The translations under genes were made by a program, and so were the position numbers. The notes under the pieces were generated by a model. It worked only from the letters and a program-made list of their open reading frames with translations, did no database searches and was not told the DNA's origin. From the NCBI GenBank assembly GCA_029762535.1, contig JARVGK010000007.1, forward strand, positions 39,420 to 103,419: a stretch of 64,000 nucleotides of DNA. Direction: 5' to 3'. The first letter of the stretch is position 1, and each line of letters starts with the position of its first letter. This document shows positions 15,775-34,773 of this stretch, piece after piece. The stretch is from Thermoplasmatota archaeon (GTDB lineage Archaea; Thermoplasmatota; Penumbrarchaeia; Penumbrarchaeales; Penumbrarchaeaceae).

Positions 15775-15782
15775 GTGATGTC

Positions 15783-16433
15783 ATGCCAGAAAAACTTGAC
15801 GATGATATGCAGAAGTTGATGTCGGATATAACCGAGATGGCGAGTCTCTCCAAAGGCATGCTGATCGATTCCGTCCGAGCGCTCAAGGACCTTGACGGTG
15901 ATCTCGCCAATGACATCATATCGAGAAAGGACAGGCTCTACGAGTACGATGACCGCATCGAGGAGCGGGCGTTGAAGATGCTCACGTTATACAGCCCCAT
16001 GGCCTCGGACCTCAGAAGGATAGCCACCGTTTTCAAGATGATAACGTATCTGACAAGGATAGGCAGATACGGATACGACATATCAAAGATAACCCTGCAT
16101 CTGGTGGGCAAGCCCCACGTGAAGAAACTCATAGATATCCCGCGCATGGCCGAGATCGTGGCGGGGATGATCGATGATGTCATAGGCGCATTCCACACGG
16201 GCGACCTTGATAGGATCGCGGACCTGGCAGAGAGGGACAATATCGTGGATGAGACGAGGTATTCGATATTCAGGGAGTGCCTCACATACATGATGGAGGA
16301 CCCATCGACCATAACCCGATGCACGGATTACATAATGATCGCGAGATACCTTGAGAGATGCGGCGATCACGCATGCAAGATCGGTGAGAAGGTTCATTAC
16401 ATGATAACTGGCGAAAGGGTCGAGATCTCATAA
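15783..16433 (+). CDS. phoU: phosphate signalling/uptake regulator PhoU
   Basis: Two PhoU helical repeats, including ERCGDHACKIGE. Sits immediately after pstB. Confidence 0.9.
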   Translation: MPEKLDDDMQKLMSDITEMASLSKGMLIDSVRALKDLDGDLANDIISRKDRLYEYDDRIEERALKMLTLYSPMASDLRRIATVFKMITYLTRIGRYGYDISKITLHLVGKPHVKKLIDIPRMAEIVAGMIDDVIGAFHTGDLDRIADLAERDNIVDETRYSIFRECLTYMMEDPSTITRCTDYIMIARYLERCGDHACKIGEKVHYMITGERVEIS

Positions 16434-18619: not shown

Positions 18620-19438
18620 TCACCAATCGTATGTGGAAGAGGTTGTGGACCTCATCCCGAACTGATCGGCCACATCGAGCCGTATCGAGTAGGTCATCGG
18701 TGACATCGGGAACGTGACCCTGGCCATCCTTCCGTTGAGGGGGAATTCCAGGTCGGGAGTTCCCGGGAGACCATCATGGTCATATGAGATCGTCCAGTCC
18801 CAGCTCAATATCTCTCCGCCCACCCCCGGATGATCGGAAAGCGAACCGTCGAGGACCGGGACCGATATGTACGATGCCGACCCCGCATCCCATTCCGTCT
18901 GGGTCCTTACAACGAAGACAGGGGACGGAGGGAGGAAGTTCCTGTTGAACGAGTTCCCGTAGCTGGTGGATATCTTGATGTTCAGATAGGACGTGAGCGC
19001 TATGTCCTTGTCCCCGCCGAAGAAGTAAGTGTCCGGATATACGATAATCGTCACCTGCTCAGTCGAATCCAATTTGCCCCAGGAGGCGTAATCCGTCCCG
19101 GTCTCGAGGAGAACTCCGTTCTTCATGATATCGAACTTCTCGACGACGTGTTCGTTTATGCTTATCATCCTGATGTAGGAGGTGCCCTCATGGAAGCTGG
19201 CGATGATCAATCCGATCTCGAACCACTCCGTTCCGGCAAGGTTCTCCTGAAGCGATATGGAGGATATGCCTATCTTCTCATTATCGCTGAGGTCCTGTAT
19301 CCTCTGGTTCCTCTGGTACGCGTCCTGGCGGTCAGCCACGAAAACGGCGAACGATGTGGCGGCGACGACGACGATCAGAACGAGTATCAACGCTCCGACC
19401 ACCTCGGAGACTCCCGAACCGCCCTTGATCTTCTTCAT
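18620..19438 (-). CDS. archaeal type IV pilin-like protein (class III signal peptide) with C-terminal Ig/PKD-like domain
   Basis: N-terminus MKKIKGGSG/VSEVVGALILVLIVVVAATSFAVF matches the prepilin pattern of a short basic n-region, a small residue and a long hydrophobic helix. Confidence 0.7.
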   Translation of the reverse strand: MKKIKGGSGVSEVVGALILVLIVVVAATSFAVFVADRQDAYQRNQRIQDLSDNEKIGISSISLQENLAGTEWFEIGLIIASFHEGTSYIRMISINEHVVEKFDIMKNGVLLETGTDYASWGKLDSTEQVTIIVYPDTYFFGGDKDIALTSYLNIKISTSYGNSFNRNFLPPSPVFVVRTQTEWDAGSASYISVPVLDGSLSDHPGVGGEILSWDWTISYDHDGLPGTPDLEFPLNGRMARVTFPMSPMTYSIRLDVADQFGMRSTTSSTYDW

Positions 19439-19614
19439 CCTCGATGCTATGAGGGACTATCTAGATAAAATGCATCAATGTATAGCCGATATTATATGGA
19501 GTGGAATATAGGACTATGAAGATACATTACTTCTATATGGGTCAGGTTTAAACGAGACGGGGTTCTACAGCGTTACCCGGGTAAAAGAGAACCTGGCAGT
19601 ATGGATGTTTCGAG

Positions 19615-20229
19615 ATGGCATTGAAGATACCCGTTCCCGGAATGGACCAGTTCCTATGCGACATACCGGACGGTTCGATGCTCGTGATGTCCGGGGGCTT
19701 CGAGGGCACACAGTCATTCCTCGCACAGTCCATCGGGTACGGGGCCTACAAATCCGGAAGGGAGGTGACCTACGTCACCTCGAGGGCGATCCCGGACATC
19801 ATGGGCGAGGTAATGAGATTCGAACCGGGAGTGGTCCCTTTCTACCTTATAGAGAACGTGCCTCTAAATGATTGGAGAACGTTCATATCCTCAAAATGCG
19901 TCCTGATAGTGGACTCATACTCCCTGCTCGTTATGAACGTGGAACTCCCTCAACTGAGGGACGGGCTGATGGAGATCAAGACGATTGCGAAGGAGCGCGG
20001 GGCCACGTTGGTCCTTGTGGCCCACCCTCCTCTCATCGATGAAAGGAGAACGTCCGTCACGGAATACTTCGCCGACTCTCTTGTCGAGTTCAGGTCCCAG
20101 GAGGAGGACGAGTTCGTACGAAGATACCTGAGGGTCCACAAATGGTACGGTACGATACTGGAGCAGCTTATCTACTACAGGATCGATGAAGGGCGAATGG
20201 AGATAGACCTCAGGGCCAGGATAGTGTGA
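19615..20229 (+). CDS. KaiC/FlaH(ArlH)-like RecA-superfamily protein with degenerate Walker A
   Basis: GMDQFL..IPDGSMLVMSGGFEGTQSF aligns to the FlaH/KaiC P-loop region but lacks GK(S/T), with Q in place of K. A Walker B-like LIVDSYS is present. Confidence 0.6.
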   Translation: MALKIPVPGMDQFLCDIPDGSMLVMSGGFEGTQSFLAQSIGYGAYKSGREVTYVTSRAIPDIMGEVMRFEPGVVPFYLIENVPLNDWRTFISSKCVLIVDSYSLLVMNVELPQLRDGLMEIKTIAKERGATLVLVAHPPLIDERRTSVTEYFADSLVEFRSQEEDEFVRRYLRVHKWYGTILEQLIYYRIDEGRMEIDLRARIV

Positions 20230-20239
20230 GGACGTTCTT

Positions 20240-21754
20240 ATGATACAATCCAAGGGATACGAGAGATTCGGCCTAACGGGCAACCCTTTCCGGGACCTTG
20301 CCTCCGAGACGCTCGAGACCATCGACATCTTCCACGTCAGACAGGAGATGGACGATCATCTGCGAATGATAATCGACGAGATCTTCGAGAAGCAGTCCAA
20401 GGCGGTCGTGGCCATACTCGGAGCCCTGGGCATGGGCAAGACCCAGAGGCTTCTCCTGATCCAGAGCTGGGCCAGGGATAAGAAGGCCTACTGCGTGTTC
20501 AGGTCCATCAATCCCCAGGCAAAGCTCGTCATAAGCGATGTCATAAAGACCTTGATCGATACGGTCCCCCTGACATTCTTCGAGAGGAACATCTCCGCGC
20601 CCAGATTCTATTCGGACCTGAAGAAGGCATACAGGTCCTCCCGGAAGAAGTTCGACCCGGAACTGATCGGCAGGGCCATCGCCGGAGCCCTCAACGCCCG
20701 TTCCCCTTCGATACTTATACTTAACGACCTTCACAACGTCGATCCAACGGCCGAGCTGCCGGATTTCCTTCAGGTGCTGTATTCCATAGTCAACAACCTG
20801 GACGAGGGCGTCATGATAGCGATAGGGTCCAACTCCGCATATTTCGACGGGATAATGAAGAGGCATCAGTCCCTCGAGGAGAGGATAAACTACAAGCTGG
20901 AGGTGCAGCCCCTCATAGACACGGAGGCCCAGGAGATGGTGGCGAAGAGGCTGACGGCGAAGAGGCTCGTCGAGGACCTAAACCCCATATACCCCTTCAA
21001 CAACGATTCCATATCGATATTGAACTCGGAATCACATGGAAATCCCCGGCAGGTCCTCAAGCTCTCGGACAGGATCATCGACCAGGCCGCGACCGAGAGG
21101 GTCATACAGATAGACGCCCAGTATGCGATGGATATACTCGAGGGATCGAGACAGAAGAGGTCCCTTCCTCCGGCCCCCCATGAGATCCTCAAGAAGCTGA
21201 GGGAGGAGGCCAGGGTCAAGAGGCCGGCCATCCCGTCTCGGACCCCCCCGGGCATCTCAACAGAGTTCGAGAAGAAGGTCAAGGAATACGAGCATGCCCT
21301 GGAGAAGATGGAGAAGGCCCTGGAGAGGAAAGAACCCCTGCCTGAAAAAGAGAAGAGGATGCCCGGGGCAGCGGTCAAGGTCGATCTCCCGGTCGATGCT
21401 CCTCTGGAGGTCGCTCCATCGATGCCCGATCCGATCGGGACGGTGCCCCCGGTCAAGGTCGATCTCCCCGTCGATACTCCTCTGGAGGTCGCTCCCCCGA
21501 TGACCGGTCCTACCACGATCGTGCCCAAGCCCTCCCTGGACGAGGAGCTGCCGCTCATCATCAAGAAGAAGGTGACGATGAGAAAATTGGAGACCGTCAC
21601 CGAGGACGGCATTCCGGCGCCTCCGAAGAGCATCTTCATAATTGAGGAGAGGGAAATGCCCGGTCCTCCCAGGAAAGAGAAGGGTTCCAAGGGCGAACCG
21701 TCCGAGGATGCCGTTCTCTCCAGGTACAGGTCGGTTCCTCCGACGCGGAGTTAA
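20240..21754 (+). CDS. ExeA/GspA-like AAA ATPase with Pro-rich repeat-containing C-terminus
   Basis: The N-terminus Y..FGL..NPF followed by Walker A GALGMGKTQ and Walker B ILILNDLH resembles the ExeA (COG3267) layout. The C-terminus is Lys/Glu/Pro-rich. Confidence 0.65.
   Translation: MIQSKGYERFGLTGNPFRDLASETLETIDIFHVRQEMDDHLRMIIDEIFEKQSKAVVAILGALGMGKTQRLLLIQSWARDKKAYCVFRSINPQAKLVISDVIKTLIDTVPLTFFERNISAPRFYSDLKKAYRSSRKKFDPELIGRAIAGALNARSPSILILNDLHNVDPTAELPDFLQVLYSIVNNLDEGVMIAIGSNSAYFDGIMKRHQSLEERINYKLEVQPLIDTEAQEMVAKRLTAKRLVEDLNPIYPFNNDSISILNSESHGNPRQVLKLSDRIIDQAATERVIQIDAQYAMDILEGSRQKRSLPPAPHEILKKLREEARVKRPAIPSRTPPGISTEFEKKVKEYEHALEKMEKALERKEPLPEKEKRMPGAAVKVDLPVDAPLEVAPSMPDPIGTVPPVKVDLPVDTPLEVAPPMTGPTTIVPKPSLDEELPLIIKKKVTMRKLETVTEDGIPAPPKSIFIIEEREMPGPPRKEKGSKGEPSEDAVLSRYRSVPPTRS
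21374..21495 (+). repeat. in-frame tandem duplication, two copies with a 78-nt period
   Basis: The 44-nt cores at 21374..21417 and 21452..21495 are near-identical. They encode VKVDLPVD(A/T)PLEVAP(S/P)M twice inside the ExeA-like gene. Confidence 0.85.
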
Positions 21755-21888
21755 TGCAGTAAGTATCCTACTTTTATCTATGTAAACCACTGTCCCTAAC
21801 GCCTGGTATATCATATTATTTAGAGTAAATTATTGCCGTAGGCAGGGCTTAAGGCATGTATCGGTCCTCGGTGTCCTCGGTGTAGGAC

Positions 21889-22146
21889 ATGATACGGGAA
21901 CTAAGGCATCAAACGGTGGTCGAGGCCATCTGGAACAGAGGGGGCTGCGCCTCCATGAAGGACATCGAGAACTTGATGTACCAGCATCTCAAGGGGCCTT
22001 ACCACTCCGATCTGGGCTTCATGTATCTGGAGGACCGAACGGCGATCATGAGGCTCAAGATCGACGAGATCCTCGACGACCTGCGCAGGAACGGGCTCGT
22101 TGAGATGATCGATGAGGACCTGTTCGCACTCACCGACGCCTCGTAG
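21889..22146 (+). CDS. small hypothetical protein
   Basis: 85-aa ORF in an otherwise empty intergenic gap. No motif recognised. Confidence 0.35.
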   Translation: MIRELRHQTVVEAIWNRGGCASMKDIENLMYQHLKGPYHSDLGFMYLEDRTAIMRLKIDEILDDLRRNGLVEMIDEDLFALTDAS

Positions 22147-22206
22147 ATGTAGATGCATCTTCCATGGTCCGAACGAAGCGTGGGCGCAAGACCCGATCCG
22201 CTCAGG

Positions 22207-23610
22207 CTAGAACACGGCTATGGAGAATAGAAGGACCACGACCAGGGCGAGAACGAGCGAGTGTACCAGTCCGTAGCGGATCTTGCCCTCGGTTATCTTC
22301 CCTATTATCGTTCCAGATCCGATCCCCATTATGATCGCCAGATGGAAGAAGCGCCTCTTCAGCGTCAGAAGCCCCATCTTGACGACAGATGCGCCCCCTT
22401 CCGACCCTTCGAGTCCCTGGAAGCCGAAGACCATGGACATGTCCAGATTCTCGAACTTGGGATAGACGTCCATAAGCATGTATATGACCGTGAGGAGAAC
22501 GCCCAAGGCCATGTATATTATAGTTATCTGAATGGTCATCTGCCTCCTTCTCTCGGCCTTGACCTTCACGAAATCGTCCAGATCCCTCGCAGCCCTGTGC
22601 ACGACGACGGCTATGTTGCCCCCTATCTTCGTTGATTCGGCGATGAGCGTCGTGTACCTCTTCACCACCCTGCTGTTCGAGGGAGCGGCCACGATGTCCA
22701 GGGCCTCTTCGAACGCCCGCCCCGCCATGATGTTCTTCGAGGCGATCCTGAGGTATTTTGACATGACGCTCGAGTCGGTCTTCGCTATCTCGACTATCGC
22801 CCTGGCCGGGTCTATGCCGCCTCTCATTCCGTCCGCGATCCCGAACAGGAGCTGGGCGAACGCCGCCTCGTACCTGTTTATCCTCTTGAGCTCCCTCTGC
22901 GAGTCGATCGCGTACGGGGTCGTTCCGATGAAGAAACCGATTATCAGAACGATCTCGATCCCGAACCTTCCCAGGTCCGGATGGTCGTGGACGTAGAATA
23001 GTCCCAGTATGGTGAAGGTGATGGCGGTGAGGATCGGTACGTAGAGTATTAGATACTTCTGCTGCACCGGATGCGTTATGAGGAACTTCTTGAGCCTGAA
23101 TCTCCTCTTGGCCCTCAGATAGATATAACCGGATATGGCCAGTACCGCGAGGATGGCGAATATCACGCTGATGAAAACGAGGACCTGCATCGAGGAGGGG
23201 AGGGTGAGTTCGAACCCGGGCTCCGGTTCGTCGCTGACGATGAAGACCGAATCGACCATCGCCTCGTTCCCCGCGTTGTCCCTGATGATGAAGGTGAGAT
23301 TGTGCGGGCCGCTCGATAGGGTGTATATAGTGTCTATCTTGACCGTCATGTCGGTCTCGTTCACTATGAGGTCGAAGTAGGCGGAGACGTCGAAATCGTC
23401 GATGTAAAGAACCGCGCTTCCCGTGTCAATGCCCGAATAATCGGTGTACTTTATCTGTATCACCGGGTTGGGATCGTATATGGTCTGGTTCGCCGCGGGA
23501 TAGACCAGGGTGACGATCGGCGGATCCGTGTCCTCTGCTGATGCATAGGACATGATGAGGACCAGGGGCAACAGGAGAAGGACCGCTGCGGGGAACGTGA
23601 ACGATCTCAT
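22207..23610 (-). CDS. T2SS-F/TadC-like pilus platform protein with N-terminal signal peptide and Ig-like ectodomain
   Basis: Signal-like N-terminus. A roughly 110-aa beta module ends in IIRDNAGNEA. It is followed by TM segments and a T2SF-type cytoplasmic helical domain (INRYEAAFAQLL..ADGMRGG). Last gene of the ATPase operon. Confidence 0.75.
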   Translation of the reverse strand: MRSFTFPAAVLLLLPLVLIMSYASAEDTDPPIVTLVYPAANQTIYDPNPVIQIKYTDYSGIDTGSAVLYIDDFDVSAYFDLIVNETDMTVKIDTIYTLSSGPHNLTFIIRDNAGNEAMVDSVFIVSDEPEPGFELTLPSSMQVLVFISVIFAILAVLAISGYIYLRAKRRFRLKKFLITHPVQQKYLILYVPILTAITFTILGLFYVHDHPDLGRFGIEIVLIIGFFIGTTPYAIDSQRELKRINRYEAAFAQLLFGIADGMRGGIDPARAIVEIAKTDSSVMSKYLRIASKNIMAGRAFEEALDIVAAPSNSRVVKRYTTLIAESTKIGGNIAVVVHRAARDLDDFVKVKAERRRQMTIQITIIYMALGVLLTVIYMLMDVYPKFENLDMSMVFGFQGLEGSEGGASVVKMGLLTLKRRFFHLAIIMGIGSGTIIGKITEGKIRYGLVHSLVLALVVVLLFSIAVF

Positions 23611-24519
23611 TCAATCCACCTTTGCATAGGATGCCGATATGAACAGGTTCATGGCGATCACGGAGAAGGGGATCAGGAAATATGTCATGATTATGAGAAG
23701 GGTGCTCGCGTCTATCCCGTTGAACGTCGATGCCAGCGTCTCCATGAGGAACGCCGCCACCCCGGCGAACAATATTCCCATCAGCACCAGGCTGGTATAG
23801 ATCTCCATCAGGGTGCCGAGGCCCTCTATGAACTCCTTCTGTATGTCCCTCTTGAGTTTGAGGCTCGCATCGGCCTTGTTCCTGAGATACGTGTCCATGT
23901 CGCCGCCCTCGTGTATCATGTTCGAGAAGTCCCAGAGCATCTCCCTGAGATGCTGGGAGGGAGTCTCCTTGGCCGTCTCGCTTATGGCGGTGATTATGTC
24001 CTTCCCCTCCACGTCCAGGTGGTATATTATCTTCCTGAACTCCCTGGACATGTACTTCGAGTCCTTTCTCTGGGAGATCTTCCTCATTATCTGAACCGGG
24101 GAGAGGCCGGTGGATGCCAGGATGGAGAGCTCGCTCATGGTGAAGGGCAGCTCCTTGTCTATCTCCGACTTCTTCTTGGATATCCTCGAGGAGATGATAA
24201 GGGGATAGGAGAATATCGTGACGAGAAGGGAGACGGCAAAGAGCGAGGCCGTGAACAAGGGCCAGCCTTCCACGTTGAACATCACCCTGAAGACGAGTAT
24301 GGATATGATAAGGACCGCCGCGGCCGAGAACAGCGTGGCGTATAACATCATGGAGAGGTACATCCCCGGGGACATGTTCACGTCCCCCTTGGACAGCCTG
24401 AGCTTGAGCCGGTTCATGTCGTATTTTAGATCCAATGTGCGACCAAGGGACTGATAGGAGAAACGCTTGTACCTCTCCAGGAACCCCTCCCAGGCGGAGG
24501 GGTCATCCTTTCTTGACAT
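23611..24519 (-). CDS. T2SS-F/TadB-like pilus platform protein
   Basis: TM segments flank a T2SF domain (ELPFTMSELSILASTGLSP). Overlaps the ATPase gene by 17 nt and abuts the TadC-like gene. Confidence 0.75.
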   Translation of the reverse strand: MSRKDDPSAWEGFLERYKRFSYQSLGRTLDLKYDMNRLKLRLSKGDVNMSPGMYLSMMLYATLFSAAAVLIISILVFRVMFNVEGWPLFTASLFAVSLLVTIFSYPLIISSRISKKKSEIDKELPFTMSELSILASTGLSPVQIMRKISQRKDSKYMSREFRKIIYHLDVEGKDIITAISETAKETPSQHLREMLWDFSNMIHEGGDMDTYLRNKADASLKLKRDIQKEFIEGLGTLMEIYTSLVLMGILFAGVAAFLMETLASTFNGIDASTLLIIMTYFLIPFSVIAMNLFISASYAKVD

Positions 24520-26254
24520 CGATGGCCCCCATCGATTCGAGGTTGACCATGGCCTTCGTGGGGTCCATGTAGAATTCGTTTATCGCCCTGCTCACGTCCT
24601 TGTAATACGTCAGGTTCTTCTGGTCCATCAGCTTGAGGTATTTCTCCTTGCGGTATATCTCGTCCATTATGGACTGGAGCGTCTTTCCGGTCGATCTCGC
24701 TATGTCCTCTATCAGGAAGCTCCTCCCCGTGAACTTGAACGCATCGTTCGTGGGATCCCACGTGAAGGGGGCGTTCGTCAGAAGGTTCTTTGAGGATGGC
24801 TCGATGTCCAGGACCTCCGTCACGCCCTTGACGCGCCTGACCCTCCTGCCCCTGTACACGACCTGCCCCTGGAAAACGACGGCGTCGAGCGACATGAACA
24901 GGGACCTGGGTATGTCCATCGGGGGGTTCTCCACCCTGTGTATCAGCTCGTCGATGGAGCCGGCGTGTATCGTCGCCATCGCGGCGTGCCCGACGGCTAT
25001 GGCCTGGAACAGGGTGAACGCCTCCTTGCCCCTGACCTCCCCCACTATCACGTATTCCGGTCTCTGTCTCAGGGCCGCTACCAGCAGGTCGAACATCGAT
25101 ATGCTCCCCGAGGACCCTCCCGAGGCGCTGACCCCGAACCCCCCCCTTGATACGGACTGTATCCAGTTGGTGTGGTCGATGTGGATCTCGGGGGTGTCCT
25201 CTATGGAGACCACCTTGTCCTCCGGCTTCACGAACATGCACAGCGCGTTCATGAGCGTGGTCTTGCCCGAGGCCGTGCCTCCGGAGATGAGAAGCGACCT
25301 CTTATACTCGATTATCGTCCAGAAGTAGGCGAGCTGGAAGGCGGAGATCGATCCGAACCTCATGAGGTCCACAGGTGAGATGGGATCGTGGGAGAACTTC
25401 CTTATCGTGAAGGTGGAACCTTTTCTCGTGACCTCGGAGCCCAGCGTCAGGTTGATCCTCGAGCCGTCGGTGAGGGTGGCGTCGAGTATGGGCTGATAGA
25501 CGGAGACGTGCTTTCCGGCGACCTGGGCGAGTTTTACGACATAGCGGTTCAGCTCCACATCGGAGGGGAATTGTATGTTGGTCTTCATTGACCCCATCCC
25601 CCTGTGGAATATGTAGATGGGGATGTTGGGTCCGTTGCAGGATATGTCCTCTATGAACGGGTCCTTGATGAGGGCGTCCGCCCTCCCCCAGCCGATGAGG
25701 TCCCTCTGGAGGTAGTAGAAGAGGACGCGCCTCCTCTTCTCGTCAAGGTCTATGTTGTAGAGGTCCAGAACTGACTGGTAGAGGCCGAGTATGTAGTTCC
25801 TGAGCTGGTCGGAGCGTCCGTACTCGGAACCCTCGGAGATCGGGAGCTCGTCCTGGTCCATTGCGACCTCCATCTTCGACTTTATGCTCTGGATGAGGTC
25901 CTCCTCGCCCTCTTTGAGCCTGGGCTCCTTTATGAGGTACTTCATCTCGCCCTCTTTTCTGTCATATGTGATGTTGACGAAGGAATAAGGAGGGTTCACC
26001 GGATAGGTCAGGTTGACCCCGAGCTTCTCCTTGTCCAGTTCCCGCCTCATGAAGTTGAGCTCGCGCTGGATGATTATCTTCTCGGAGATCTCGCCTTTCT
26101 TCCTCAGCTGGGATTCGATCTCGCGGGCGCGCTTTCGAAGCTTTTCCCGGAACTCGGGATCCTCCATCCTGTCGTCCGTGAGCTTCTCCTTCTTCATGAA
26201 GGGCAGGTCCGCCGATGCGGTCCATTTTACAATTCTATCCATTAATCCTGTCAA
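24503..26254 (-). CDS. type II/IV secretion ATPase of the FlaI(ArlI)/PilB/VirB11 family
   Basis: Walker A SGGTASGKTTLMNAL, Asp/His-box region SIEDTPEI and VGEVRGKEAFTLFQAIAVGH. Confidence 0.9.
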   Translation of the reverse strand: MTGLMDRIVKWTASADLPFMKKEKLTDDRMEDPEFREKLRKRAREIESQLRKKGEISEKIIIQRELNFMRRELDKEKLGVNLTYPVNPPYSFVNITYDRKEGEMKYLIKEPRLKEGEEDLIQSIKSKMEVAMDQDELPISEGSEYGRSDQLRNYILGLYQSVLDLYNIDLDEKRRRVLFYYLQRDLIGWGRADALIKDPFIEDISCNGPNIPIYIFHRGMGSMKTNIQFPSDVELNRYVVKLAQVAGKHVSVYQPILDATLTDGSRINLTLGSEVTRKGSTFTIRKFSHDPISPVDLMRFGSISAFQLAYFWTIIEYKRSLLISGGTASGKTTLMNALCMFVKPEDKVVSIEDTPEIHIDHTNWIQSVSRGGFGVSASGGSSGSISMFDLLVAALRQRPEYVIVGEVRGKEAFTLFQAIAVGHAAMATIHAGSIDELIHRVENPPMDIPRSLFMSLDAVVFQGQVVYRGRRVRRVKGVTEVLDIEPSSKNLLTNAPFTWDPTNDAFKFTGRSFLIEDIARSTGKTLQSIMDEIYRKEKYLKLMDQKNLTYYKDVSRAINEFYMDPTKAMVNLESMGAIDVKKG

Positions 26255-26308
26255 GGCGCCTTGGCTACTCTTATTACGATATTAATTACTGTTTCACGTA
26301 AAGGACAT

Positions 26309-26322
26309 ACAATATATAGGGA
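26309..26322 (+). promoter_or_regulatory. ACAATATATAGGGA element in the divergent ATPase/pstS2 intergenic region
   Basis: Lies in the 192-bp divergent intergenic region. Shares the core AATATATAG with 11959..11968 and 38551..38560 (minus strand). Confidence 0.3.
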
Positions 26323-26446
26323 TACGGAGGGGATCTTTCCCCAATGGAGAGGAAGTTGGGATCGGTAAGACAAGACAACTATTTGGAGAACGCCTATATG
26401 CCCTTCTTTGGGTCAGGGAAATGGGTCCCGAAGGGGATCCAAGTAG

Positions 26447-27595
26447 GTGAAAGAAATGAAGCACATGAAAAACGACAAGGCAGGGGTCTCCCCGGTCATT
26501 GCCACGTTGATATTGGTGCTCATCGCCGTAGCGGCGGGAGTTGCCTTTTTCGCATGGCAGTCTGGCTGGCAGGAAGACGCCACAGGTAACATAAGCAATG
26601 CGAACGCACAGACGGAGATAACCATCGGTGGATCCTCCACCGTCTATCCTTTCACGGCAGTTGCGGCTGAGGCTTTCATGGAAGCCAACCCCACCGTGAA
26701 GATCTCCTACCAGTCCGGTGGATCCGGTGCAGGAACCGCTGGCGTCAGGGAGGGTGTCATCGATATCGGTGCCGCCTCCTCCGACAGGACCCAGGCCAAG
26801 CACTTCCCCGACCACCCCGACGTGGTCATCACCGCCGTCGGCTATGACGCCGTCGGTGTCGTCGTCGATGATGGCAACACCAGGATAAACGATATCAACG
26901 CAACCGTCGCAATCGAGATCTTCACAATGGTCATCACCGACTGGAACCAGGTCCCTGTTGCATCTGGCGCGTCCGGAACTGGCACAACTGGTGCAGCTGG
27001 TTCTGAGACCACTGTAACAGTCTCCACCGGAACCCTTGCAATTGGCAGGTACAGGATGTGGTCTGCAACAACTCTCGTGAGGACTGTCGATGTTATAGCT
27101 GCAAATACGCTCCCCTCAGATCTCTTCGGAGCATCCGCATCCATCTCCTGGCAGGTTATCACCTCCGCTACCTCCGCTCCTATCGAAGTCTACGACAGGG
27201 CTGACAAGTCCGGAACCGAGGAGTGCTTCAACGAGAAGCTCCTCGGCCTCGATGGATCCTCCATCCCCGAAGGTGATCAGACCGGTGTCGCAGGCAATCA
27301 GGAAATGCTCGACCTCTTCGAGGCTGGCGCACCCAACGCTATCGGATTCATCTCCACCGGTGTCGCCACCTCCGATGTGAAGCTCGTCACCCTCGACGGC
27401 GTCGCCGCCACCGAGGAGAACATCGCTGACGGGTCCTACACCGCCCAGAGGCCCCTGAACTATATGTACATCCCCTCCCAGCTCGGCGGAAAGCTCGCCA
27501 TCGTTGAGGCGTACATAGACTTCTGCATGTCCCCCAAGAACAATATTGACTTCGCCCACTCCGTGGACTACCTCTCCTGGTATGACCTCGAGTAA
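26447..27595 (+). CDS. pstS2: PstS-family phosphate-binding protein with archaeal class III (prepilin-type) signal peptide
   Basis: N-terminus MKEMKHMKNDKAG/VSPVIATLILVLIAVAAGVAFF. PstS motifs GGSSTVYPF, SGGSGAG and DRADKSGT. A Gly/Thr/Ser/Ala-rich insertion lies between the lobes. Confidence 0.8.
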   Translation: MKEMKHMKNDKAGVSPVIATLILVLIAVAAGVAFFAWQSGWQEDATGNISNANAQTEITIGGSSTVYPFTAVAAEAFMEANPTVKISYQSGGSGAGTAGVREGVIDIGAASSDRTQAKHFPDHPDVVITAVGYDAVGVVVDDGNTRINDINATVAIEIFTMVITDWNQVPVASGASGTGTTGAAGSETTVTVSTGTLAIGRYRMWSATTLVRTVDVIAANTLPSDLFGASASISWQVITSATSAPIEVYDRADKSGTEECFNEKLLGLDGSSIPEGDQTGVAGNQEMLDLFEAGAPNAIGFISTGVATSDVKLVTLDGVAATEENIADGSYTAQRPLNYMYIPSQLGGKLAIVEAYIDFCMSPKNNIDFAHSVDYLSWYDLE

Positions 27596-27628
27596 TCGGG
27601 TTGATGGCAAAATATCAAATAACATCTC

Positions 27629-27661
27629 GGAGGGTTTTTTATTAAACCCTCCTTTTTTTTT
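27629..27661 (+). terminator. hairpin plus T-run between pstS2 and pstCA2
   Basis: GGAGGGTTT-TTTATT-AAACCCTCC forms a 9-bp perfect stem, followed directly by 9 T. Archaeal terminators are typically oligo-T. Confidence 0.6.
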
Positions 27662-27708
27662 ATTTTCTTTCTTTTTGAAATGTTTCGTCTCTAGGATAGG
27701 GTAGTAAA

Positions 27709-30700
27709 ATGGATCTCAAGGTTCCGAATTGGGCTGTTGCGATAGTTCAGGCATTGATATTCGTCATAATCTTCTTCCCCGCCCTCTTCGCATTGGACTC
27801 ATTCTATCTACAATTGCCTTTCTTCATCCTGGAATTGATCATGATCTTCATCGTTCTCACCAAGAAGGATATGAGATTCTTTTACATGTTCTGGCAGTTC
27901 CAGATATATCTCCTCATTCTATTCAAGGTGATATTCGATTACAATACAACGTTCAAGACGATCGATTCTGAACCATTGGCGATCATTGTCATCTCGTTCT
28001 TCATAACATTCCTGGAAGCATTGATCCTTGTGGGATTCATCCTTCGGGAAAAGGGCGTTAAGCCCATACTTGTGACACTGTCCTCAACGACCAGCATCGT
28101 TGTGCTGCTCATTATCATTTTTATTTTCAAGGAAGGTCTCCCGGCTTTTTCGGAGAACGATCCTATCGAGTTCTTGACAGGAAATAGCTGGACGGCAGAT
28201 TATGAACCATCCTTGGAAGATACGATCCTGATCGAGGTCGTTGTTTCGGATTACGATCACGAAATATCGATACCGGATGATAGGCTGTATCTCGCAATAG
28301 ATGAGAACCATACTGTTCCCATCGATCTGAAGAACACCGGATCGAAGGATGATACCTATCTGTTAAGTTTGGAATATCCCTCCGGTCTATCGGTTCAGGA
28401 TCATCAAAGAACTGTTTTTTTAAGATCTGGATCGGATCATACTTTCGATATCGATCTTTCTTCAAATATTTCCATGGACTTGGATCTGAGGATCATTGTG
28501 GGATCCATGAATGGAAGTATATCAAAGGAAAGGACAATAGACCTGGCTTTCGGAGACGTTGGGATCGATGCGGGGCCGGAGTACTTCCATTATCTGAATT
28601 CGGAGATGAATGTCCCTCGCACTCCTTTTTGGGTGAAGAATACCGGGAACGTAGTTGAGACCTATTCCGTGACATTGACCTTCGATGAAGAGATCATCAA
28701 ACCTTTTGTGACCGGGACCGACAATGATTGGGACCACGATAACGATACAGTTGACATCACCCTGGACCCCATGGAAACCGTTTCCTTCAACGTGATAACA
28801 AGGATCCTGAACCTTCGCCCGTTCAGGTCTACAATAACGATCGATGTCGTGTCAAGGACGGATCCCGGCATATATGACAGCATAGTGATCGACTTCGAGT
28901 ATCGGGACAGGAGCTATTTCGATCACGATCAAACTTCTTTCGTCGTATCCAAAGGCTCCGATGTCATCATCCCGGTCTTCGTCAATATCACAAACCCGGC
29001 AAATTCCAATTTCTTCATACTGGTTGAAGATGGGAACGGGCCCCTGGAGACCTTCAGCCTATCGTATGATTCCGTAAATATCGATGAAATCGATGAAAAG
29101 GTTCCGATCAACCTATCATCGGGTATGAAGACCCTTCTATTGACCGTCAGGTCCAATTCGAATATCGGAGGATCGGAGAATATCACCCTTAATATCACAT
29201 TGGAGAGGGAAGGGACCTATCCTTCCTTCGGCATCGGCCCGATGATCGTCGGCACGTTCATCACCGTCCTTGTCGCATTGATCATAGCCGTTCCATTAGG
29301 ACTGGGTACGGCGATCTTTTTGGCGGAATACTGCCCCAAGAAACTGCACATCTTCCTGCGTCCTATGTTCGAACTTTTGGCCGGGATCCCTTCGATAGTT
29401 TACGGCCTCTGGGGATATTTCACATTGGTACCCTTCTTCAGGGACAACATATACGGCCCGGTGAGTGGATCTTTGGGATTGGCGATCCCCTTCCTAAGGA
29501 TCACACCGGAGACCCCCAGTTCCGAGGGGACCGTGATCGTTGCCGGTTTCGTCCTATCAATTATGATACTTCCGATCATCATAACCCTTTCCGAAGATTC
29601 TATACGAGCCGTTGCCAGGAGCCTGAAGGAGGGATCGCTCTCATTGGCCACGACTAAATGGCAGACGATAAGAGGCGTGGTCCTGAAAAGAGCGAAAAGC
29701 GGGATCATATCCTCTATCATTTTGGCCATGGGAAGGGCCATAGGCGAGACCATGGCTGTTATAATGATACTCAGGATAGCGACGAATTATCCGAGTTCGC
29801 TCTTCGAACGGGCAGGGTCAATGACCGCGGTCATCGCCGGGACCTTCGGATGGGCATTCGATCTCGATCTTTCAAGACATGCCGTCTTTGGGGTTGCGAT
29901 CGTGCTGTTCATGATCGTCTTCGTTCTTAACCTGATAGTCTTCAGGATACAGAACGGTGAGAAGAAGGGAAGTATCGCTTTCCGGTGGGTAAATCGTATC
30001 GTCGAGAAGGCCATCAATTATTGTTTCAGGAAAAAAGAAGACATGAGGACCCTTCCGACCAAGGGACCGGTGTTCGATAAAAAGAATATGACATCACTTG
30101 GCTTTTTACGGTTCCAGGAATACCTGTTCAGGTCATTGTTCGCGCTATCGGCAATAGTGATCTTCATATTCCTCCTGCTTGTCCTAAGCAATGTTTTCAT
30201 TACGGGAATATCATCGATGAAATTATACTATCTTTTCGAAAAGGAAGTCGCGGGAGGATTGGAGGACGGTGGATTCCTCAATGCCATTCTCGGTTCCCTT
30301 CAGCTGACGTTCTTGGCATTATTGATCTCCTCCATATTCTCGTTGGGAGCGGCCATATACATTACACAGTTCAGCAAACAGAACAATATCCTAACGAGGA
30401 CCATACTCTTCTCTTCCGATACCCTTGCTGCGACGCCTTCGATCGTATTCGGGGCATTTGGGTTCATTTTCTTCTCCATCGAGCTCAAACTAGGCCTGTC
30501 GATGTTGTCGGCAGCGCTTACTCTGTCAATAATGGTGATCCCCCTCCTTTTAAGAAGTTCGATAGAAGCTCTCAACAGCATACCCAGAGAGCTTGGGGAT
30601 GGTTCCCTGGCATTGGGAGCGAGTAAATGGCAGACGGTGTGGAACGTGATATTGCCGCCGGCATTGGGGGGAATATCAAGTGGCGTTATCCTTTCCATCG

Positions 30701-30954
30701 GCAGGGCCATCGGAGAGACGGCGGCCATCCTTTTCACGGCAGGTTATGCCCTGACCATAAACAACTCCATAATGTCATCGGTTGCGACCATGCCGAATAT
30801 GATCTACAATTACTATGGTCTCAGCTCCCACAATCCCGCCCTTCAGGATAAATTATATTCATGTGCCCTTGTCTTGATCGTCCTGGTATTGATCCTGAAC
30901 TCCATCGCCCGTTTATCACAGATAAGAACGAACAAATTGAAGGGGAATTATTAG
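27709..30954 (+). CDS. pstCA2: PstC-PstA fusion permease with N-terminal TM extension and a large extracellular loop insertion
   Basis: 1081 aa. PstC core: FGIGPMIVGT..LAGIPSIVYG..GRAIGETMAV. PstA core: LAATPSIVFG..GRAIGETAAI. About 340 non-membrane residues lie between TGNSW (aa 157-161) and YPSFGIGP (aa 504-511). Confidence 0.85.
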   Translation: MDLKVPNWAVAIVQALIFVIIFFPALFALDSFYLQLPFFILELIMIFIVLTKKDMRFFYMFWQFQIYLLILFKVIFDYNTTFKTIDSEPLAIIVISFFITFLEALILVGFILREKGVKPILVTLSSTTSIVVLLIIIFIFKEGLPAFSENDPIEFLTGNSWTADYEPSLEDTILIEVVVSDYDHEISIPDDRLYLAIDENHTVPIDLKNTGSKDDTYLLSLEYPSGLSVQDHQRTVFLRSGSDHTFDIDLSSNISMDLDLRIIVGSMNGSISKERTIDLAFGDVGIDAGPEYFHYLNSEMNVPRTPFWVKNTGNVVETYSVTLTFDEEIIKPFVTGTDNDWDHDNDTVDITLDPMETVSFNVITRILNLRPFRSTITIDVVSRTDPGIYDSIVIDFEYRDRSYFDHDQTSFVVSKGSDVIIPVFVNITNPANSNFFILVEDGNGPLETFSLSYDSVNIDEIDEKVPINLSSGMKTLLLTVRSNSNIGGSENITLNITLEREGTYPSFGIGPMIVGTFITVLVALIIAVPLGLGTAIFLAEYCPKKLHIFLRPMFELLAGIPSIVYGLWGYFTLVPFFRDNIYGPVSGSLGLAIPFLRITPETPSSEGTVIVAGFVLSIMILPIIITLSEDSIRAVARSLKEGSLSLATTKWQTIRGVVLKRAKSGIISSIILAMGRAIGETMAVIMILRIATNYPSSLFERAGSMTAVIAGTFGWAFDLDLSRHAVFGVAIVLFMIVFVLNLIVFRIQNGEKKGSIAFRWVNRIVEKAINYCFRKKEDMRTLPTKGPVFDKKNMTSLGFLRFQEYLFRSLFALSAIVIFIFLLLVLSNVFITGISSMKLYYLFEKEVAGGLEDGGFLNAILGSLQLTFLALLISSIFSLGAAIYITQFSKQNNILTRTILFSSDTLAATPSIVFGAFGFIFFSIELKLGLSMLSAALTLSIMVIPLLLRSSIEALNSIPRELGDGSLALGASKWQTVWNVILPPALGGISSGVILSIGRAIGETAAILFTAGYALTINNSIMSSVATMPNMIYNYYGLSSHNPALQDKLYSCALVLIVLVLILNSIARLSQIRTNKLKGNY

Positions 30955-30955
30955 T

Positions 30956-31103
30956 TCACTGCTTCGGATAGTCGAAGATCTCGGGCGCGTCCTCGGCTAT
31001 CACGTGCACTCTGGGCTTGACCTTCATGCTCATCTCGATCAATCTCTTCGTGGAGAGGACCAACGCCACGAAGATCACCGCAAAGGAGATCCCCGCTATG
31101 ATC
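30956..31103 (-). pseudogene. orphan 3' fragment (about 48 codons plus stop) of a PPC-domain surface protein gene; left copy of a direct repeat
   Basis: About 92% identical by eye to 33661..33808. Translates to IIAGISFAVIFVALVLSTKRLIEMSMKVKPRVHVIAEDAPEIFDYPKQ*, one aa different from the intact gene. No upstream coding continuation. Confidence 0.7.
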
Positions 31104-31139
31104 GATGACGTTGGGAGAACAGTGATTATATCGCTTTCA

Positions 31140-31370
31140 TTACATAGGGACCTGTACCTCGGTCAGGATCTCCGATCCCGATGTCTTGCCGGGATCGTTG
31201 CGAAAGGGCTCCCTTGCCTTCCATGCGGGAGGGATGCCCTTCTGCTCGAGATATTTGAACAGCATTCACCACGCCGCTCCTACCTGATCGTAGGGGCCTT
31301 TGTGGATGGCGGACATCACTTTTTTTGCGGATATCCATTTCACATTCAGTTCCTTTTGCAGGGTCCACAT
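31140..31370 (-). pseudogene. GyrI-like/effector-binding-domain relic with an in-frame TGA
   Basis: Minus-strand translation is MWTLQKELNVKWISAKKVMSAIHKGPYDQVGAAW*MLFKYLEQKGIPPAWKAREPFRNDPGKTSGSEILTEVQVPM*. HKGPY..G.A...L..YL...G and E...P resemble the GyrI-like fold. It is only about half the domain length. Confidence 0.4.
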
Positions 31371-31557
31371 GATTGCAATCTCGGTCGGACCACCATTCAA
31401 ACCTAGGTTGCGATCCTTTAACGGACCCTGGAATGAAAGGCCTATTTAGTATGTGATAGGATAACAGATAGTATTATATACAGAGCAGTTTTATACGTCT
31501 TTCTTGTGAAGTACCCGTAAAAAAGAGACTTAAAACTTAAAAAAGAGGCGGTCTAAA

Positions 31558-32784
31558 ATGTTGATAGAGTTCAAGCTCAGGAACTTCAGGTCCATCAGGG
31601 ACGAGATGACCTTCAGCCTGCTGGCATCGAGCGACAGGACGCATTCCCAGAACTTAATCGTTCACGATGCATTGAAAAAGGACCTTCTGCTTAAGAGCGC
31701 CGTGATCTACGGCGCCAACGCTTCGGGTAAGACCAACGTTCTTCTGGGTTTGAACACCCTAAGAGGACTTGTCGTCCATTCTCACAGCAACCAGATAGGT
31801 CAGGAGCTTCCTTACGAGCCGTTCAGATTGGACGAAAGGGCCGGGTCCGACGATACCTCCTTCCGGATCGCATACATTCATAAGGACATCAAGTACATCT
31901 ACGAGCTCTCCTACAACAGGGAAAAGGTTGTTGATGAGGTTCTCTACAGCTATCCGCAGGGAAGAAGGTCGTTGCTCTTTTCAAGGACCGGAACGGATAA
32001 TTACAGGTTCACCAAAGATGAAAAGGAGCAGACCCTGATCAAAGAAAGGACACCCCCGAACGTCCTCTACCTTTCAAGGGCCGCACAGTTCAACTACCAA
32101 CCTGCAATAGATGCGTTCGAATGGTTCAAGGAAAAGCTGAAATTTATAGGACCTTCCGACCATATCAATCTGATGAAGTTCACAAGCAAAATGCTGGAGG
32201 ACCCCAAGAGCAAGGACATGATCCTTCAGGGGCTCAGGACCGCGGACCTCGGGATAGACGATGTCATCCTCAACAATGTCACTATCAGGGCCGAGGAGCT
32301 GCCCGGGGACCTCCCTTCGGAGCTAAAGGATAGGTTGGTAGGCTCCGAACGTACTAGGATATTGACATATCATAAGGGTGTTCCGTTTGACCTTTCAGAT
32401 GATGAGTCCGAAGGCACCAAGAGAATGTTCCATCTGATCGGACCCGTAATAAAAGCTCTCAACGATTCACAGGTCCTCCTGATAGACGAGCTCGATACAA
32501 AGCTCCATCACCTTATGAACATCTTTTTGATAGAGCTGTTCCAGAATACCGACAACCCTTCATCCCAGCTCGTGTTCACAACACACAACACAACCCTTCT
32601 CGAATCCGAACTCTTCAGAAGGGACCAGATATGGTTCACCGAAAGACGGCCTGATGACGATTCGACCGACCTCTACTCTCTCCTTGAGTTCCACCCCAGA
32701 AACGATGCGAACATAAAGATAGGATACCTGTCGGGAAGGTACGGTGCCATACCTCTCATCAAGAGCGAAAGGTTGTGCCCATGA
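31558..32784 (+). CDS. AAA_15/AAA_21-type ABC-like ATPase (AbiLi-like partner of RloB)
   Basis: N-terminus F.L.NFRSI, Walker A GANASGKTN, Walker B LLIDELDTKLH and FTTHN. Overlaps the RloB gene by 10 nt. Confidence 0.85.
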   Translation: MLIEFKLRNFRSIRDEMTFSLLASSDRTHSQNLIVHDALKKDLLLKSAVIYGANASGKTNVLLGLNTLRGLVVHSHSNQIGQELPYEPFRLDERAGSDDTSFRIAYIHKDIKYIYELSYNREKVVDEVLYSYPQGRRSLLFSRTGTDNYRFTKDEKEQTLIKERTPPNVLYLSRAAQFNYQPAIDAFEWFKEKLKFIGPSDHINLMKFTSKMLEDPKSKDMILQGLRTADLGIDDVILNNVTIRAEELPGDLPSELKDRLVGSERTRILTYHKGVPFDLSDDESEGTKRMFHLIGPVIKALNDSQVLLIDELDTKLHHLMNIFLIELFQNTDNPSSQLVFTTHNTTLLESELFRRDQIWFTERRPDDDSTDLYSLLEFHPRNDANIKIGYLSGRYGAIPLIKSERLCP

Positions 32785-33404
32785 CCGAAAGAGGCTATTC
32801 CAGGAGAAGGGACCGAACGCGGCGTTCCTTTAACACGGTCCTCGTTGTCTGTGAAGGGCTCAAGACGGAAAGGATATATCTGAAAGGATTGAACGAAAGG
32901 TACGGTCGTGTTCATATCCTACCTGTTCATTCCGGTTCGACCGATGTCAGGTCCATGGTAAGATTTGCTGTGGGAAAGAGAAGGGAATACCAGTTCCGGG
33001 AAGGGGACGGGAACGAGACCTGGTGCGTCTTCGACGTGGATGAGAAGGACGATGATGAGCTCCTTCAATGGATCCCATATGCAGAAAGGAACGGTGTGAT
33101 GGTGGCTCTCTCCAATCCTTCTTTTGAGCTCTGGTACCTCCTTCATTTCGATTACAGGCCCGGTCCGACCGACAGGTACAAGGTCCTGGAGGACCTGAAA
33201 AGGTCCATACCTGATTACGAGAAGAGCGGTTGTTACAATCATATCCTTTACCCCCTGACCATGAATGCAATAGATAATTCCAAACGATTGAACAAAGAAC
33301 ATTCAAGGATAGGAGTTGACCTTAACTCCAAAAAGGCCAACCCATCGACCCAGGTCTTCAAGCTTATCGAAGCGGTCAAACTTTTAAAAGAAAGGAATGG
33401 ATAA
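32775..33404 (+). CDS. RloB-like (Toprim-related) protein, AbiLii-like
   Basis: RloB family hallmarks VLVVCEGLKTERIY, WCVFDVDE and SNPSFELWYLLHF. Confidence 0.85.
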   Translation: MPMTERGYSRRRDRTRRSFNTVLVVCEGLKTERIYLKGLNERYGRVHILPVHSGSTDVRSMVRFAVGKRREYQFREGDGNETWCVFDVDEKDDDELLQWIPYAERNGVMVALSNPSFELWYLLHFDYRPGPTDRYKVLEDLKRSIPDYEKSGCYNHILYPLTMNAIDNSKRLNKEHSRIGVDLNSKKANPSTQVFKLIEAVKLLKERNG

Positions 33405-33499
33405 AAGCGATCGATCATCTCATCATAGTTGTATTACCTTAATAAAAACTCATAAGGCATTCCAGGCTTTTGATGCTGTGTGAAGGATTTATCCTGTGA

Positions 33500-33676
33500 A
33501 TGGCTTTATGGAGAGGACGTATTGACCCCGTCCAGTTCCCCGAGGTGAACGACAAGGTATATTCGCCGGCGTTCATACTCATAGTCATCGTTCTGATATT
33601 GAACTCCCTGGCCAGATCGATAGCTGAGGTCATCGAGGATGCAGGGAGAATAGAGAACGATCACTGCTTCGGATAG
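33500..33676 (+). pseudogene. relic of a PstA C-terminus (58 codons)
   Basis: Translation contains ..VQFPEVNDKVYSPAFILIVIVLILNSLARS.., which parallels the PstCA2 C-terminus ..NPALQDKLYSCALVLIVLVLILNSIARL... It abuts the 3' end of the PPC-protein gene exactly as the intact pstCA2 abuts the fragment at 30956. Confidence 0.5.
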
Positions 33677-33808
33677 TCGAAGATCTCCGGCGCGTCCTCG
33701 GCTATCACGTGCACTCTGGGCTTGACCTTCATGCTCATCTCGATGAGCCTCTTCGTGGAGAGGACCAAAGCAACGAAGATAACCGCGAAGGCGATCCCCG
33801 CTATGATG
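33661..33808. repeat. right copy of the roughly 148-bp direct repeat (left copy 30956..31103)
   Basis: By-eye alignment gives about 11 mismatches in 148 nt. Similarity ends abruptly after CCCCGCTATGAT. Confidence 0.85.
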
Positions 33809-34290: not shown

Positions 34291-34773
34291 TGGGCTCTGC
34301 TCCCGGCCATCATCATCAACAAGATAGATGAGAGTTTTGAACTTACTCTATGGATATTATATAAAATACATATTTACCCGGGGCGGGAACCTTTCTCATT
34401 CATCACATGAGGCCTTCCCATTTTTCCTTGCACCTGTTGCGATACATCGGAGAATTATTAATCCGTTTCCTAAATAGAAAACGTCCCCAATATAGAGGAT
34501 ATAAATCGATCGGAATTCTCCCTCTCTATATCGCACTCATTACATCTACATAAAGAAAACACTATCGGTTCATCGACTTTATATCCGGCATGGCGTTTTC
34601 CCTTTTGTCTGCCCAAAGGGGCAGTCACCATCCGGAGTGTCACGGAAGCGATCCCTGAAAAGGGGATCCCGCCATCAGGGAACGAAAGGTTTTCTCATTA
34701 AACCCCCCCAGTAGAAAGATCCGATGGGTAATCCAAACTGAAGGGACTTACCACCAGCGGGATCCCCACTCCA

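Follow-up and report, generated by a model that had tools for sequence, protein, structure and literature searches.

A PstS homologue with a pilin-type N-terminus, encoded with a phosphate importer and a type IV filament assembly machine: a candidate phosphate bindosome in archaea

We examined a 64-kb window of a Thermoplasmatota archaeon genome (contig JARVGK010000007.1 of assembly GCA_029762535.1, positions 39,420 to 103,419) in which genes for a type IV filament (TFF) assembly machine are interleaved with those for a second phosphate importer of the Pst type. Central to the cluster is the gene for PstS2, a phosphate-binding protein homologue with a pilin-like, class III N-terminus. An earlier note, made from the sequence alone, had named most of these genes and suggested that they could encode a phosphate-dedicated counterpart of the Sulfolobus bindosome. 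When the cluster genes were scored by profile search (Pfam and NCBIfam) against family cutoffs, the named genes were present at their given coordinates and nearly every label was upheld. The functional unit extends from about 18620 to 38484 and includes three genes absent from that note, pstB2 and two genes encoding AbrB-PhoU fusions. Just upstream of the cluster lies a canonical pstS1-pstCA1-pstB1-phoU operon (12045..16433, plus strand), and PstS1 carries the conventional anchor first ascribed to it, a lipobox-like IVAGC. A scan of every open reading frame (ORF) in the window found class III-type N-termini in two proteins only, both encoded within the cluster.

PstS2 (26456..27595, plus strand) has a prepilin-type N-terminus that scores above the cutoff of TIGR02537 (22.5 bits, cutoff 20) and a phosphate-binding domain that matches PBP_like_2 (87 bits), the combination on which the original proposal was built. 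Its sequence matches the solved phosphate-binding proteins 4gd5, 4q8r and 4h1x, and its first 90 residues match the Iho670 filament protein (5kyh), an archaeal filament subunit. In an AlphaFold2 (AF2) model based on 25 homologues (mean pLDDT 84), a 32-residue N-terminal helix (residues 13-44) is followed by a low-confidence linker and by a PstS fold with a beta insertion at about residues 173-235. The structure that Foldseek placed first for this model was phosphate-bound 4gd5 (TMt 0.90), followed by dozens of PstS structures, and the phosphate-site motifs GSST, GGSG and R..SGT are invariant in the 25-sequence alignment. We take these motifs to be the equivalents of T10, S38, R135 and S139-T141 of E. 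coli PstS; the counterpart of Asp56 is uncertain. Against TIGR02136, PstS2 scores 145 bits, short of the cutoff of 206.6, a shortfall due to the insertion and the N-terminus. The linker appears flexible in the model, as in tethered binding proteins. ATG 26456 is the most likely start codon; the AGGTGA ribosome-binding site ahead of it is also conserved in locus L161, the closest relative on record (PstS 66% identical; L numbers are our own locus labels).

Despite an overall identity of about 30% among 80 PstS homologues, the N-terminal helix of these proteins is nearly invariant. In 78 of the 80, an A or G precedes the predicted cleavage site and the sequence V-S-P-[VI]-[VI]-A-T-L-x-L follows it, with seven positions invariant. 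This degree of constraint would fit a peptidase recognition site together with a helix that packs against defined partners, neither of which a passive anchor needs, and the near-invariant residues at the predicted cleavage site and in the helix thus argue against the N-terminus of PstS2 being a mere uncleaved membrane anchor. An exhaustive search of 1.84 billion representative proteins returned 667 relatives at E<=1e-10, and the class III core is present in 92 of the 137 new representatives among its best 150 matches. PstS2 therefore belongs to a large family.

The permease encoded downstream, PstCA2 (27709..30954, plus strand), is the fusion of PstC and PstA that had been called there, with 418 bits against TIGR02138 and 375 bits against TIGR00974, both above cutoff. 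Its ATP-binding partner, PstB2 (37729..38484, minus strand), scores 385 bits against TIGR00972 (cutoff 343). Next to pstB2 on the same strand are genes for two AbrB/SpoVT-PhoU-domain proteins, putative phosphate regulators: protein 1 at 36698..37723 (start ATG 37723; PhoU 36.8 bits, MazE/AbrB 23.5 bits) and protein 2 at 35686..36633 (PhoU 52 bits, MazE/AbrB 27.7 bits). With pstB2 and the AbrB-PhoU genes found, the second Pst importer is complete, comprising PstS2, PstCA2, PstB2 and its own putative regulators. PstCA2 is distinguished by four extra N-terminal transmembrane (TM) segments and by an ectodomain of about 370 residues that bears eight N-glycosylation sequons and is inserted into PstC at its first outside loop. 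This architecture is conserved only in the closest subclade (L002-L011, L081/82, L098 and L102). At the position of pstCA2, L161 has a gene for a 1086-residue BPD_transp_1 permease, Methanoregula encodes long PstA proteins in place of the PstCA2 architecture, and many soil Thermoplasmata have either a second, TM-anchored PstS with a permease downstream or unrelated genes.

In the window, the pstCA2 and pstB2-phoU halves of the importer lie about 4.7 kb apart, on either side of a lower-GC stretch outside the system (30955..35685) that holds an anti-phage AbiLi/AbiLii pair (31558-33404; 293 and 94 bits in PADLOC, with Pfam AAA_21 and RloB domains). In our view, it is an island that was inserted into the cluster. 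The interval downstream of pstCA2 differs among relatives: in L081 it measures 116 bp, with pstB and a single abrB-phoU gene facing pstCA directly in convergent orientation, and L161 has 2.5 kb of other small genes there, then two PhoU-domain genes in the position corresponding to the regulators and a truncated, probable pstB ORF. The same sequence in an independent assembly breaks off about 60 bp past pstCA2. The GC content of pstCA2 is 0.47, against 0.54-0.58 for the other cluster genes and 0.571 for pstCA1; one possible explanation is that a lower-GC relative recently supplied a replacement copy along with the neighbouring island. A 129-residue ORF after pstCA2 (31017-31406) is probably not a gene and has no homologues in related loci. 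Cluster-linked pstB genes occur beside the pilin-like gene in L002, L007, L008, L011, L084 and L100 and beside pstCA in L081, and AbrB-PhoU or PhoU-domain genes stand at the cluster edge in both of the archaeal branches described below. We also considered a dedicated PstB lineage and rejected it; the cluster-linked PstB proteins do not separate cleanly from canonical PstB.

The assembly genes are transcribed divergently from pstS2. The shared intergenic region (26255..26455), which holds the ribosome-binding site that, with ATG 26456, is conserved in L161, had been given as 192 bp; its divergent arrangement stands, and its length becomes about 213 bp once the starts are corrected, the ATPase gene (24503..26254, minus strand) probably beginning at ATG 26242. 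When this region was aligned with that of L161, it was mainly the ribosome-binding site that proved conserved. As the earlier note had it, an ATPase is encoded with two platform proteins. The ATPase is of the secretion type found in archaeal TFF systems, with 112 bits against T2SSE (PF00437) and Walker motifs invariant in the alignment. It scores 410 bits against the FlaI equivalog (cutoff 550) and 193 bits against BasE (NF053672, cutoff 1000), and its nearest solved structures are A. fulgidus GspE (2oap, 397 bits) and then FlaI (4ii7, 302 bits). Because both equivalog scores fall below cutoff and 2oap is closer than FlaI, the ATPase is neither an archaellum motor nor a Bas orthologue. Each platform gene contributes one T2SSF (PF00482) domain, at 49.8 bits in the TadB-like protein (23611..24519, minus strand) and 44.5 bits in the TadC-like protein (22207..23610, minus strand). 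The similarity of the TadB-like protein to ArlJ, UpsF and BasF is in each case far below cutoff (ArlJ 76.6 vs 550 bits; BasF, NF053673, 40 vs 1300 bits). The TadC-like protein has a signal peptide, predicted TM segments and an Ig-like ectodomain of about 120 residues that is conserved across the Thermoplasmata branch.

The second class III protein in the window (18620..19438, minus strand) is a likely scaffold subunit. It has 272 residues, scores 27 bits against Pilin_N (cutoff 25.2), in keeping with its first description as pilin-like, and ends in a beta domain with a PKD-like motif. Its AF2 model (pLDDT 84.6) shows a helix (residues 8-53) running straight into two beta-sandwiches, and the predicted continuity of helix and beta domain is as in filament subunits. 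When this archaellin/pilin fold was compared by Foldseek with solved structures, the best matches among filament proteins were an archaellin of H. salinarum (9eq7, TMt 0.69) and a type IV pilus subunit from Pyrobaculum (8fk7, TMt 0.66). A class III partner of this kind occurs in most related loci. No small PilA-type pilin was found in the locus; PstS2 and this one archaellin-fold protein are its only class III subunits.

Two further components are encoded on the opposite strand. The KaiC/ArlH-like cytoplasmic protein (19615..20229, plus strand), previously labelled KaiC/FlaH-like, matches Pfam KaiC (32.6 bits, cutoff 26.6) and PH0186 in the PDB; its similarity to ArlH is weak (43.5 bits, cutoff 215). 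It is a conserved cluster member, and its Walker A motif (G....[AI]K[ST]) has Gln in place of the Lys shared by 46 of the 49 aligned homologues, which suggests that the protein in this genome may neither bind nor hydrolyse ATP. The neighbouring P-loop NTPase (20240..21754, plus strand), once called an ExeA-like ATPase, bears that label only below threshold: its AAA_22 score (21.5 bits) is under the cutoff of 27, although its Walker A motif, GxGKT, is invariant among 37 homologues. This AAA_22-like protein is conserved in Thermoplasmata loci and has no sequence match in the PDB and none in PADLOC. Proline is abundant in the C-terminal half, where a near-perfect tandem repeat, VKVDLPVD[AT]PLEVAP..., lies at about 21365-21520. 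Between the convergent AAA_22-like and tadC genes, 85-residue ORFs overlap on both strands (21889-22158); they too are probably not genes and lack homologues in related loci.

We aligned class III PstS proteins and searched one genome per GTDB species with the alignment; 144 matches were confirmed, and 80 loci were kept and annotated with the proteins of the window. In this set, the ATPase gene lies within 1.5 kb of PstS in 54 loci and follows pstC-pstA in nine more. Restricting the count to the 46 informative loci, which reach 3 kb or more beyond PstS in each direction, leaves 43 with the ATPase. Three loci depart from this pattern: in L047 the ATPase gene is found 11 kb along the same contig; the L071 locus (Methanoregula) contains tadB, tadC and kaiC; and L056 seems to be an additional PstS copy, the other copy of that genome (L038) lying in a full cluster. 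A reverse search that began from the 80 closest ATPase loci concurs. In a neighbour-joining tree of these ATPases, every PstS- or PstCA-linked member falls into one clade, composed of a Thermoplasmata branch and a branch of Methanomicrobia and anaerobic methanotrophic archaea (ANME), and ATPases without such a link lie outside it. The unlinked members inside the clade are mostly cut off by contig ends; the others are L091, which has PstS about 11 kb away, and L104. The pairing of a PstS-pilin with pilus-assembly genes recurs in well over 100 archaeal species and spans Thermoplasmata, Methanosarcinales, Methanomicrobiales, Methanocellales and ANME. Earlier, the absence of this synteny from related genomes had been set as an outcome that would refute the proposal; the pstS2-pstCA2 pair and the ATPase/TadBC genes instead prove to be tightly associated.

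The order of the genes differs between the branches. Thermoplasmata show the divergent arrangement of the ATPase operon and pstS that is seen in the window, and Methanolobus, Methanomethylovorans, Methanoculleus, Methanocella and ANME-1 have pstS-pstC-pstA-ATPase-tadB-tadC on one strand. In several of these one-strand operons pstA ends 4-8 nt past the start of the ATPase gene, as judged from first-start ORF calls, which may be over-extended; ORF calls in the high-GC loci are likewise crude, taking the first start codon after a stop. The linkage thus persists through rearrangement across classes and therefore points to functional coupling rather than chance neighbourhood. The cluster is carried by the cultured Methanolobus bombayensis DSM 7082, M. 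profundi Mob M and Methanolobus sp. ZRKC2. In many soil Thermoplasmata the cluster is bordered by the pstB-phoU end of a canonical pst operon, and such an edge is present in L016, L017, L040, L052, L058, L083, L087, L089 and L095. Parts of the cluster are also found on contigs binned as Nitrososphaerales (two independent metagenome-assembled genomes), Anaerolineales, Acidimicrobiales and Woesearchaeota (L061, L117, L109, L075 and L084), which may represent horizontal transfer or binning errors.

To our knowledge, the bindosome is a concept almost two decades old, and the structure itself has never been seen. Outside Sulfolobales, its occurrence rests mainly on signal-peptide predictions. In Sulfolobus, a TFF ATPase, a platform protein and one or more pilin-like proteins have been proposed as surface assemblers of binding proteins (PMC3047682; 10.64898/2026.04.22.720090). 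A 2026 preprint reports thousands of class III binding proteins across archaea, proposes their display by TFF systems and finds them co-localised with ATP-binding cassette (ABC) transporters rather than with TFF clusters (10.64898/2026.04.22.720090). The main text of that preprint makes no mention of phosphate or PstS, and that of Makarova et al. 2016 makes none of a linkage between PstS-pilins and TFF genes (PMC4858521). The belief of the earlier note that no phosphate-specific arrangement had been described agrees with our survey of the searchable literature, in which we found none, although an unremarked listing in a supplementary table is possible.

The system described here shares with Bas a binding protein bearing a class III signal with predicted cleavage, a TFF ATPase, a platform, a pilin-like protein and a binding domain on a flexible linker, as in the Sulfolobus binding proteins. 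It also differs from Bas. The known Bas substrates are sugars (bound by GlcS, AraS and TreS), whereas here the substrate is phosphate; the ATPase is nearer to euryarchaeal GspE/FlaI-like ATPases than to Bas; and the three small pilins BasABC contrast with a single 272-residue archaellin-fold partner accompanied by KaiC-like and AAA_22-like proteins. Binding protein, permease, nucleotide-binding domain (NBD) protein, regulators and assembly genes are gathered here in one cluster, whereas in Sulfolobus the genes for the binding proteins accompany those for their transporters and lie apart from bas. Its hosts belong to Thermoplasmata and Methanomicrobia rather than to Sulfolobales. Our best reading is that the system works like a bindosome without belonging to the Bas family.

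Other known systems resemble the cluster in part. The euryarchaeal "clade 2 / system 2" pili (Haloferax PilB/PilC; 2oap) likewise use a T2SSE ATPase, a T2SSF platform and Pilin_N-type class III subunits, and KaiC-family neighbours are frequent among clade 2 type IV pili (PMC4858521). In the cluster, however, the platform is split between two genes, one with an Ig-like ectodomain, there is no small PilA set, and the clade is defined by its PstS-pilin/pst linkage among the ATPases compared here. Relative to canonical PstSCAB-PhoU, the PstC, PstA and PstB components exceed their equivalog cutoffs and PstS2 retains the fold and the phosphate motifs, but PstS2 has a prepilin-type N-terminus instead of a lipobox or Sec signal and a beta insertion of about 60 residues, PstCA2 has its extra TM segments and ectodomain, the genes are interleaved with TFF genes, and the regulators are AbrB-PhoU fusions. 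In the modular minor pilins of bacterial type IV pili, such as PilB and PilC of Streptococcus sanguinis, a bulky globular module is likewise mounted on a pilin N-terminus, and it is the pilus machinery that delivers it. Those modules are adhesins on motility or adhesion pili, not receptors of a co-encoded ABC importer.

We propose that the cluster encodes a surface-assembly system dedicated to phosphate and working in the manner of a bindosome, a reading to which we assign a probability of roughly 60%. Support for the bindosome-like structure suggested by the earlier note, as an analogue rather than an orthologue of Bas, comes from what the parts are and how they are predicted to fold, from the importer being complete, and from the linkage of PstS-pilin, Pst permease and TFF genes throughout the clade. 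PstS2 would be synthesised with its class III signal and cut after Ala-Gly by a prepilin peptidase encoded elsewhere. The ATPase and the TadB/TadC platform would then use ATP to extract its N-terminal helix from the membrane, and the helix would join the archaellin-fold protein in a short scaffold, pilus-like or of the pseudopilus kind, that would keep the phosphate-binding domains above the membrane on flexible linkers. Loaded PstS2 would pass phosphate to the PstCA2-PstB2 importer, for which the 370-residue ectodomain may provide a raised docking site in this lineage, and the AbrB-PhoU proteins may bring the cluster under phosphate control. An unlikely, more ambitious version would have the PstS-pilin and the archaellin-fold protein polymerise into an extended, possibly dynamic phosphate-harvesting pilus that would take up phosphate at a distance from the cell and feed an importer whose 370-residue ectodomain matches it.

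Several observations weigh against a phosphate bindosome. Many soil Thermoplasmata loci lack an adjacent long PstCA, some having unrelated genes downstream of PstS, and the large permease ectodomain is for this reason not universal. No pstB was found within 10 kb of the Methanomicrobia/ANME-type operons (L032, L039, L046, L055, L073, L076, L078, L079 and similar loci). The ATPase and the platform proteins are not Bas orthologues, the Walker A lysine is lost in the KaiC-like protein of this genome, and the multi-TM ORFs of the window include no prepilin peptidase (peptidase A24). The ATPase clade rests on a neighbour-joining tree without support values. Two candidates for the missing parts were considered and set aside. 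The TFF ATPase is not a credible PstB substitute in the pstB-less operons, where its long N-terminal extensions, as called, are K/E-rich and disordered and show no NBD homology; and the two ORFs of the window that were candidates for the peptidase encode a Rce1-like protease (5983-7593) and a major facilitator superfamily transporter (55313-56434).

Alternatively, the PstS-pilin may be the major or tip subunit of an extended filament that attaches to minerals or surfaces bearing phosphate, or serves as a sensor of external phosphate, without feeding the importer directly. The many Thermoplasmata loci that keep PstS-pilin and TFF genes without an adjacent permease would accord with such a role, as would the PKD/Ig-like domains of the partner protein, the resemblance of the PstS2 N-terminus to Iho670, and the adhesin-like appearance of giant class III proteins in two relatives (L098 and L102), with a PBP_like_2 N-terminal part. 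We nevertheless consider it rather unlikely that phosphate binding here serves adhesion or sensing, because pstC and pstA, and often pstB, share a cluster or operon with the assembly genes in both branches, the pstA stop and the ATPase start overlapping in Methanomicrobia; because the phosphate-binding motifs, which are of the transport type, do not vary; and because a flexible linker is more in keeping with a receptor on a tether than with a subunit packed tightly into a filament. Distinctly unlikely, in our view, is mere co-regulation, in which an ordinary adhesion pilus belongs to a phosphate-starvation regulon and PstS2 is anchored by an uncleaved or Sec-processed helix and is no substrate of the machinery. 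The PhoU-type regulators and the canonical pst operon that adjoin the cluster are in line with this idea, and class III binding proteins usually lie with transporters rather than with TFF genes (10.64898/2026.04.22.720090). Yet a passive anchor would not hold seven invariant positions, among them G or A at -1 and VSP at +1 to +3, in proteins of about 30% identity. The ATPase clade is, moreover, specifically and almost exclusively linked to the PstS-pilin, and the locus offers no small PilA-type pilin.

That the cluster is an archaellum-derived rotary or motility device, with an ArlH/I/J-like core placed beside pst genes by chance, is highly improbable. Its best NCBIfam matches are indeed FlaI, ArlJ and ArlH, the partner protein is archaellin-like, and JGI labels one of its homologues as FlaG/FlaF family. 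All three matches fall far short of their equivalog cutoffs, however, GspE of A. fulgidus is closer to the ATPase than FlaI is, the platform is divided between two genes, and the locus has no gene for ArlB, ArlCDE or ArlX. The archaellin gene expected of an archaellum beside the ArlI, ArlJ and ArlH equivalogs was not found in the window.

The proposed phosphate bindosome would add phosphate acquisition to the functions of type IV filament systems and suggests a route for the scavenging of scarce phosphate by archaea that are common in peat, soil and sediment. A binding protein, its permease, an NBD, PhoU-type regulators and a private TFF machine are inherited together across classes, which is the strongest genomic evidence obtained here for a TFF machine dedicated to the receptor of one transporter. 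The presence of the cluster in cultured Methanolobus makes the idea testable. If the extended pilus were correct, it would be the first nutrient-specific TFF appendage to co-evolve with its own ABC transporter, and Methanolobus would become a tractable model for the unseen architecture of the bindosome.

Further observations concern the relatives and the surroundings of the cluster. The giant class III-signal proteins are encoded between the tadC-like and AAA_22-like genes of two Methanomassiliicoccales loci (L098:11186-15055 and L102:12839-17689), in which no pilin-like gene was detected. The L098 protein has 1289 residues and matches PBP_like_2 in its N-terminal part only, and the L102 ORF, of at least 1,600 codons, runs off the locus. 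AATATAG-like elements occur at 11982 (pstS1), 19505 (the pilin/kaiC pair) and 38544 (pstB2), with TATATAG at about 26312. A shared promoter motif was considered and discarded: AATATAG is present in three of the four pst/TFF promoter regions, yet its count in the window is 4, against 4.4 expected by chance, and these elements may be a TATA-box-like sequence.

Other genes adjoin the pst genes. Directly upstream of pstB2 lies a GT4 glycosyltransferase gene (38551-39717, minus strand) whose best NCBIfam match is a monoglucosyl-diacylglycerol synthase (149 bits, below cutoff); a role in making phosphorus-free glycolipids under phosphate limitation is speculative. A low-molecular-weight phosphatase/ArsC-like gene and a metallophosphoesterase gene follow the phoU of the pst1 operon (16446-18039), and LMWPc homologues stand beside pst/TFF clusters in L007, L037, L073, L080 and L084. 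Directly upstream of pstS1 is a gene for an 858-residue STAND-type NTPase (9354-11930) that is MalT-like in its weak helix-turn-helix, NB-ARC/AAA and tetratricopeptide repeat matches and has no homologue in the related loci examined. Beyond the cluster, a 1373-residue secreted protein (43060-47181) combines a gingipain-type Peptidase_C25 domain with several bacterial Ig-like domains.

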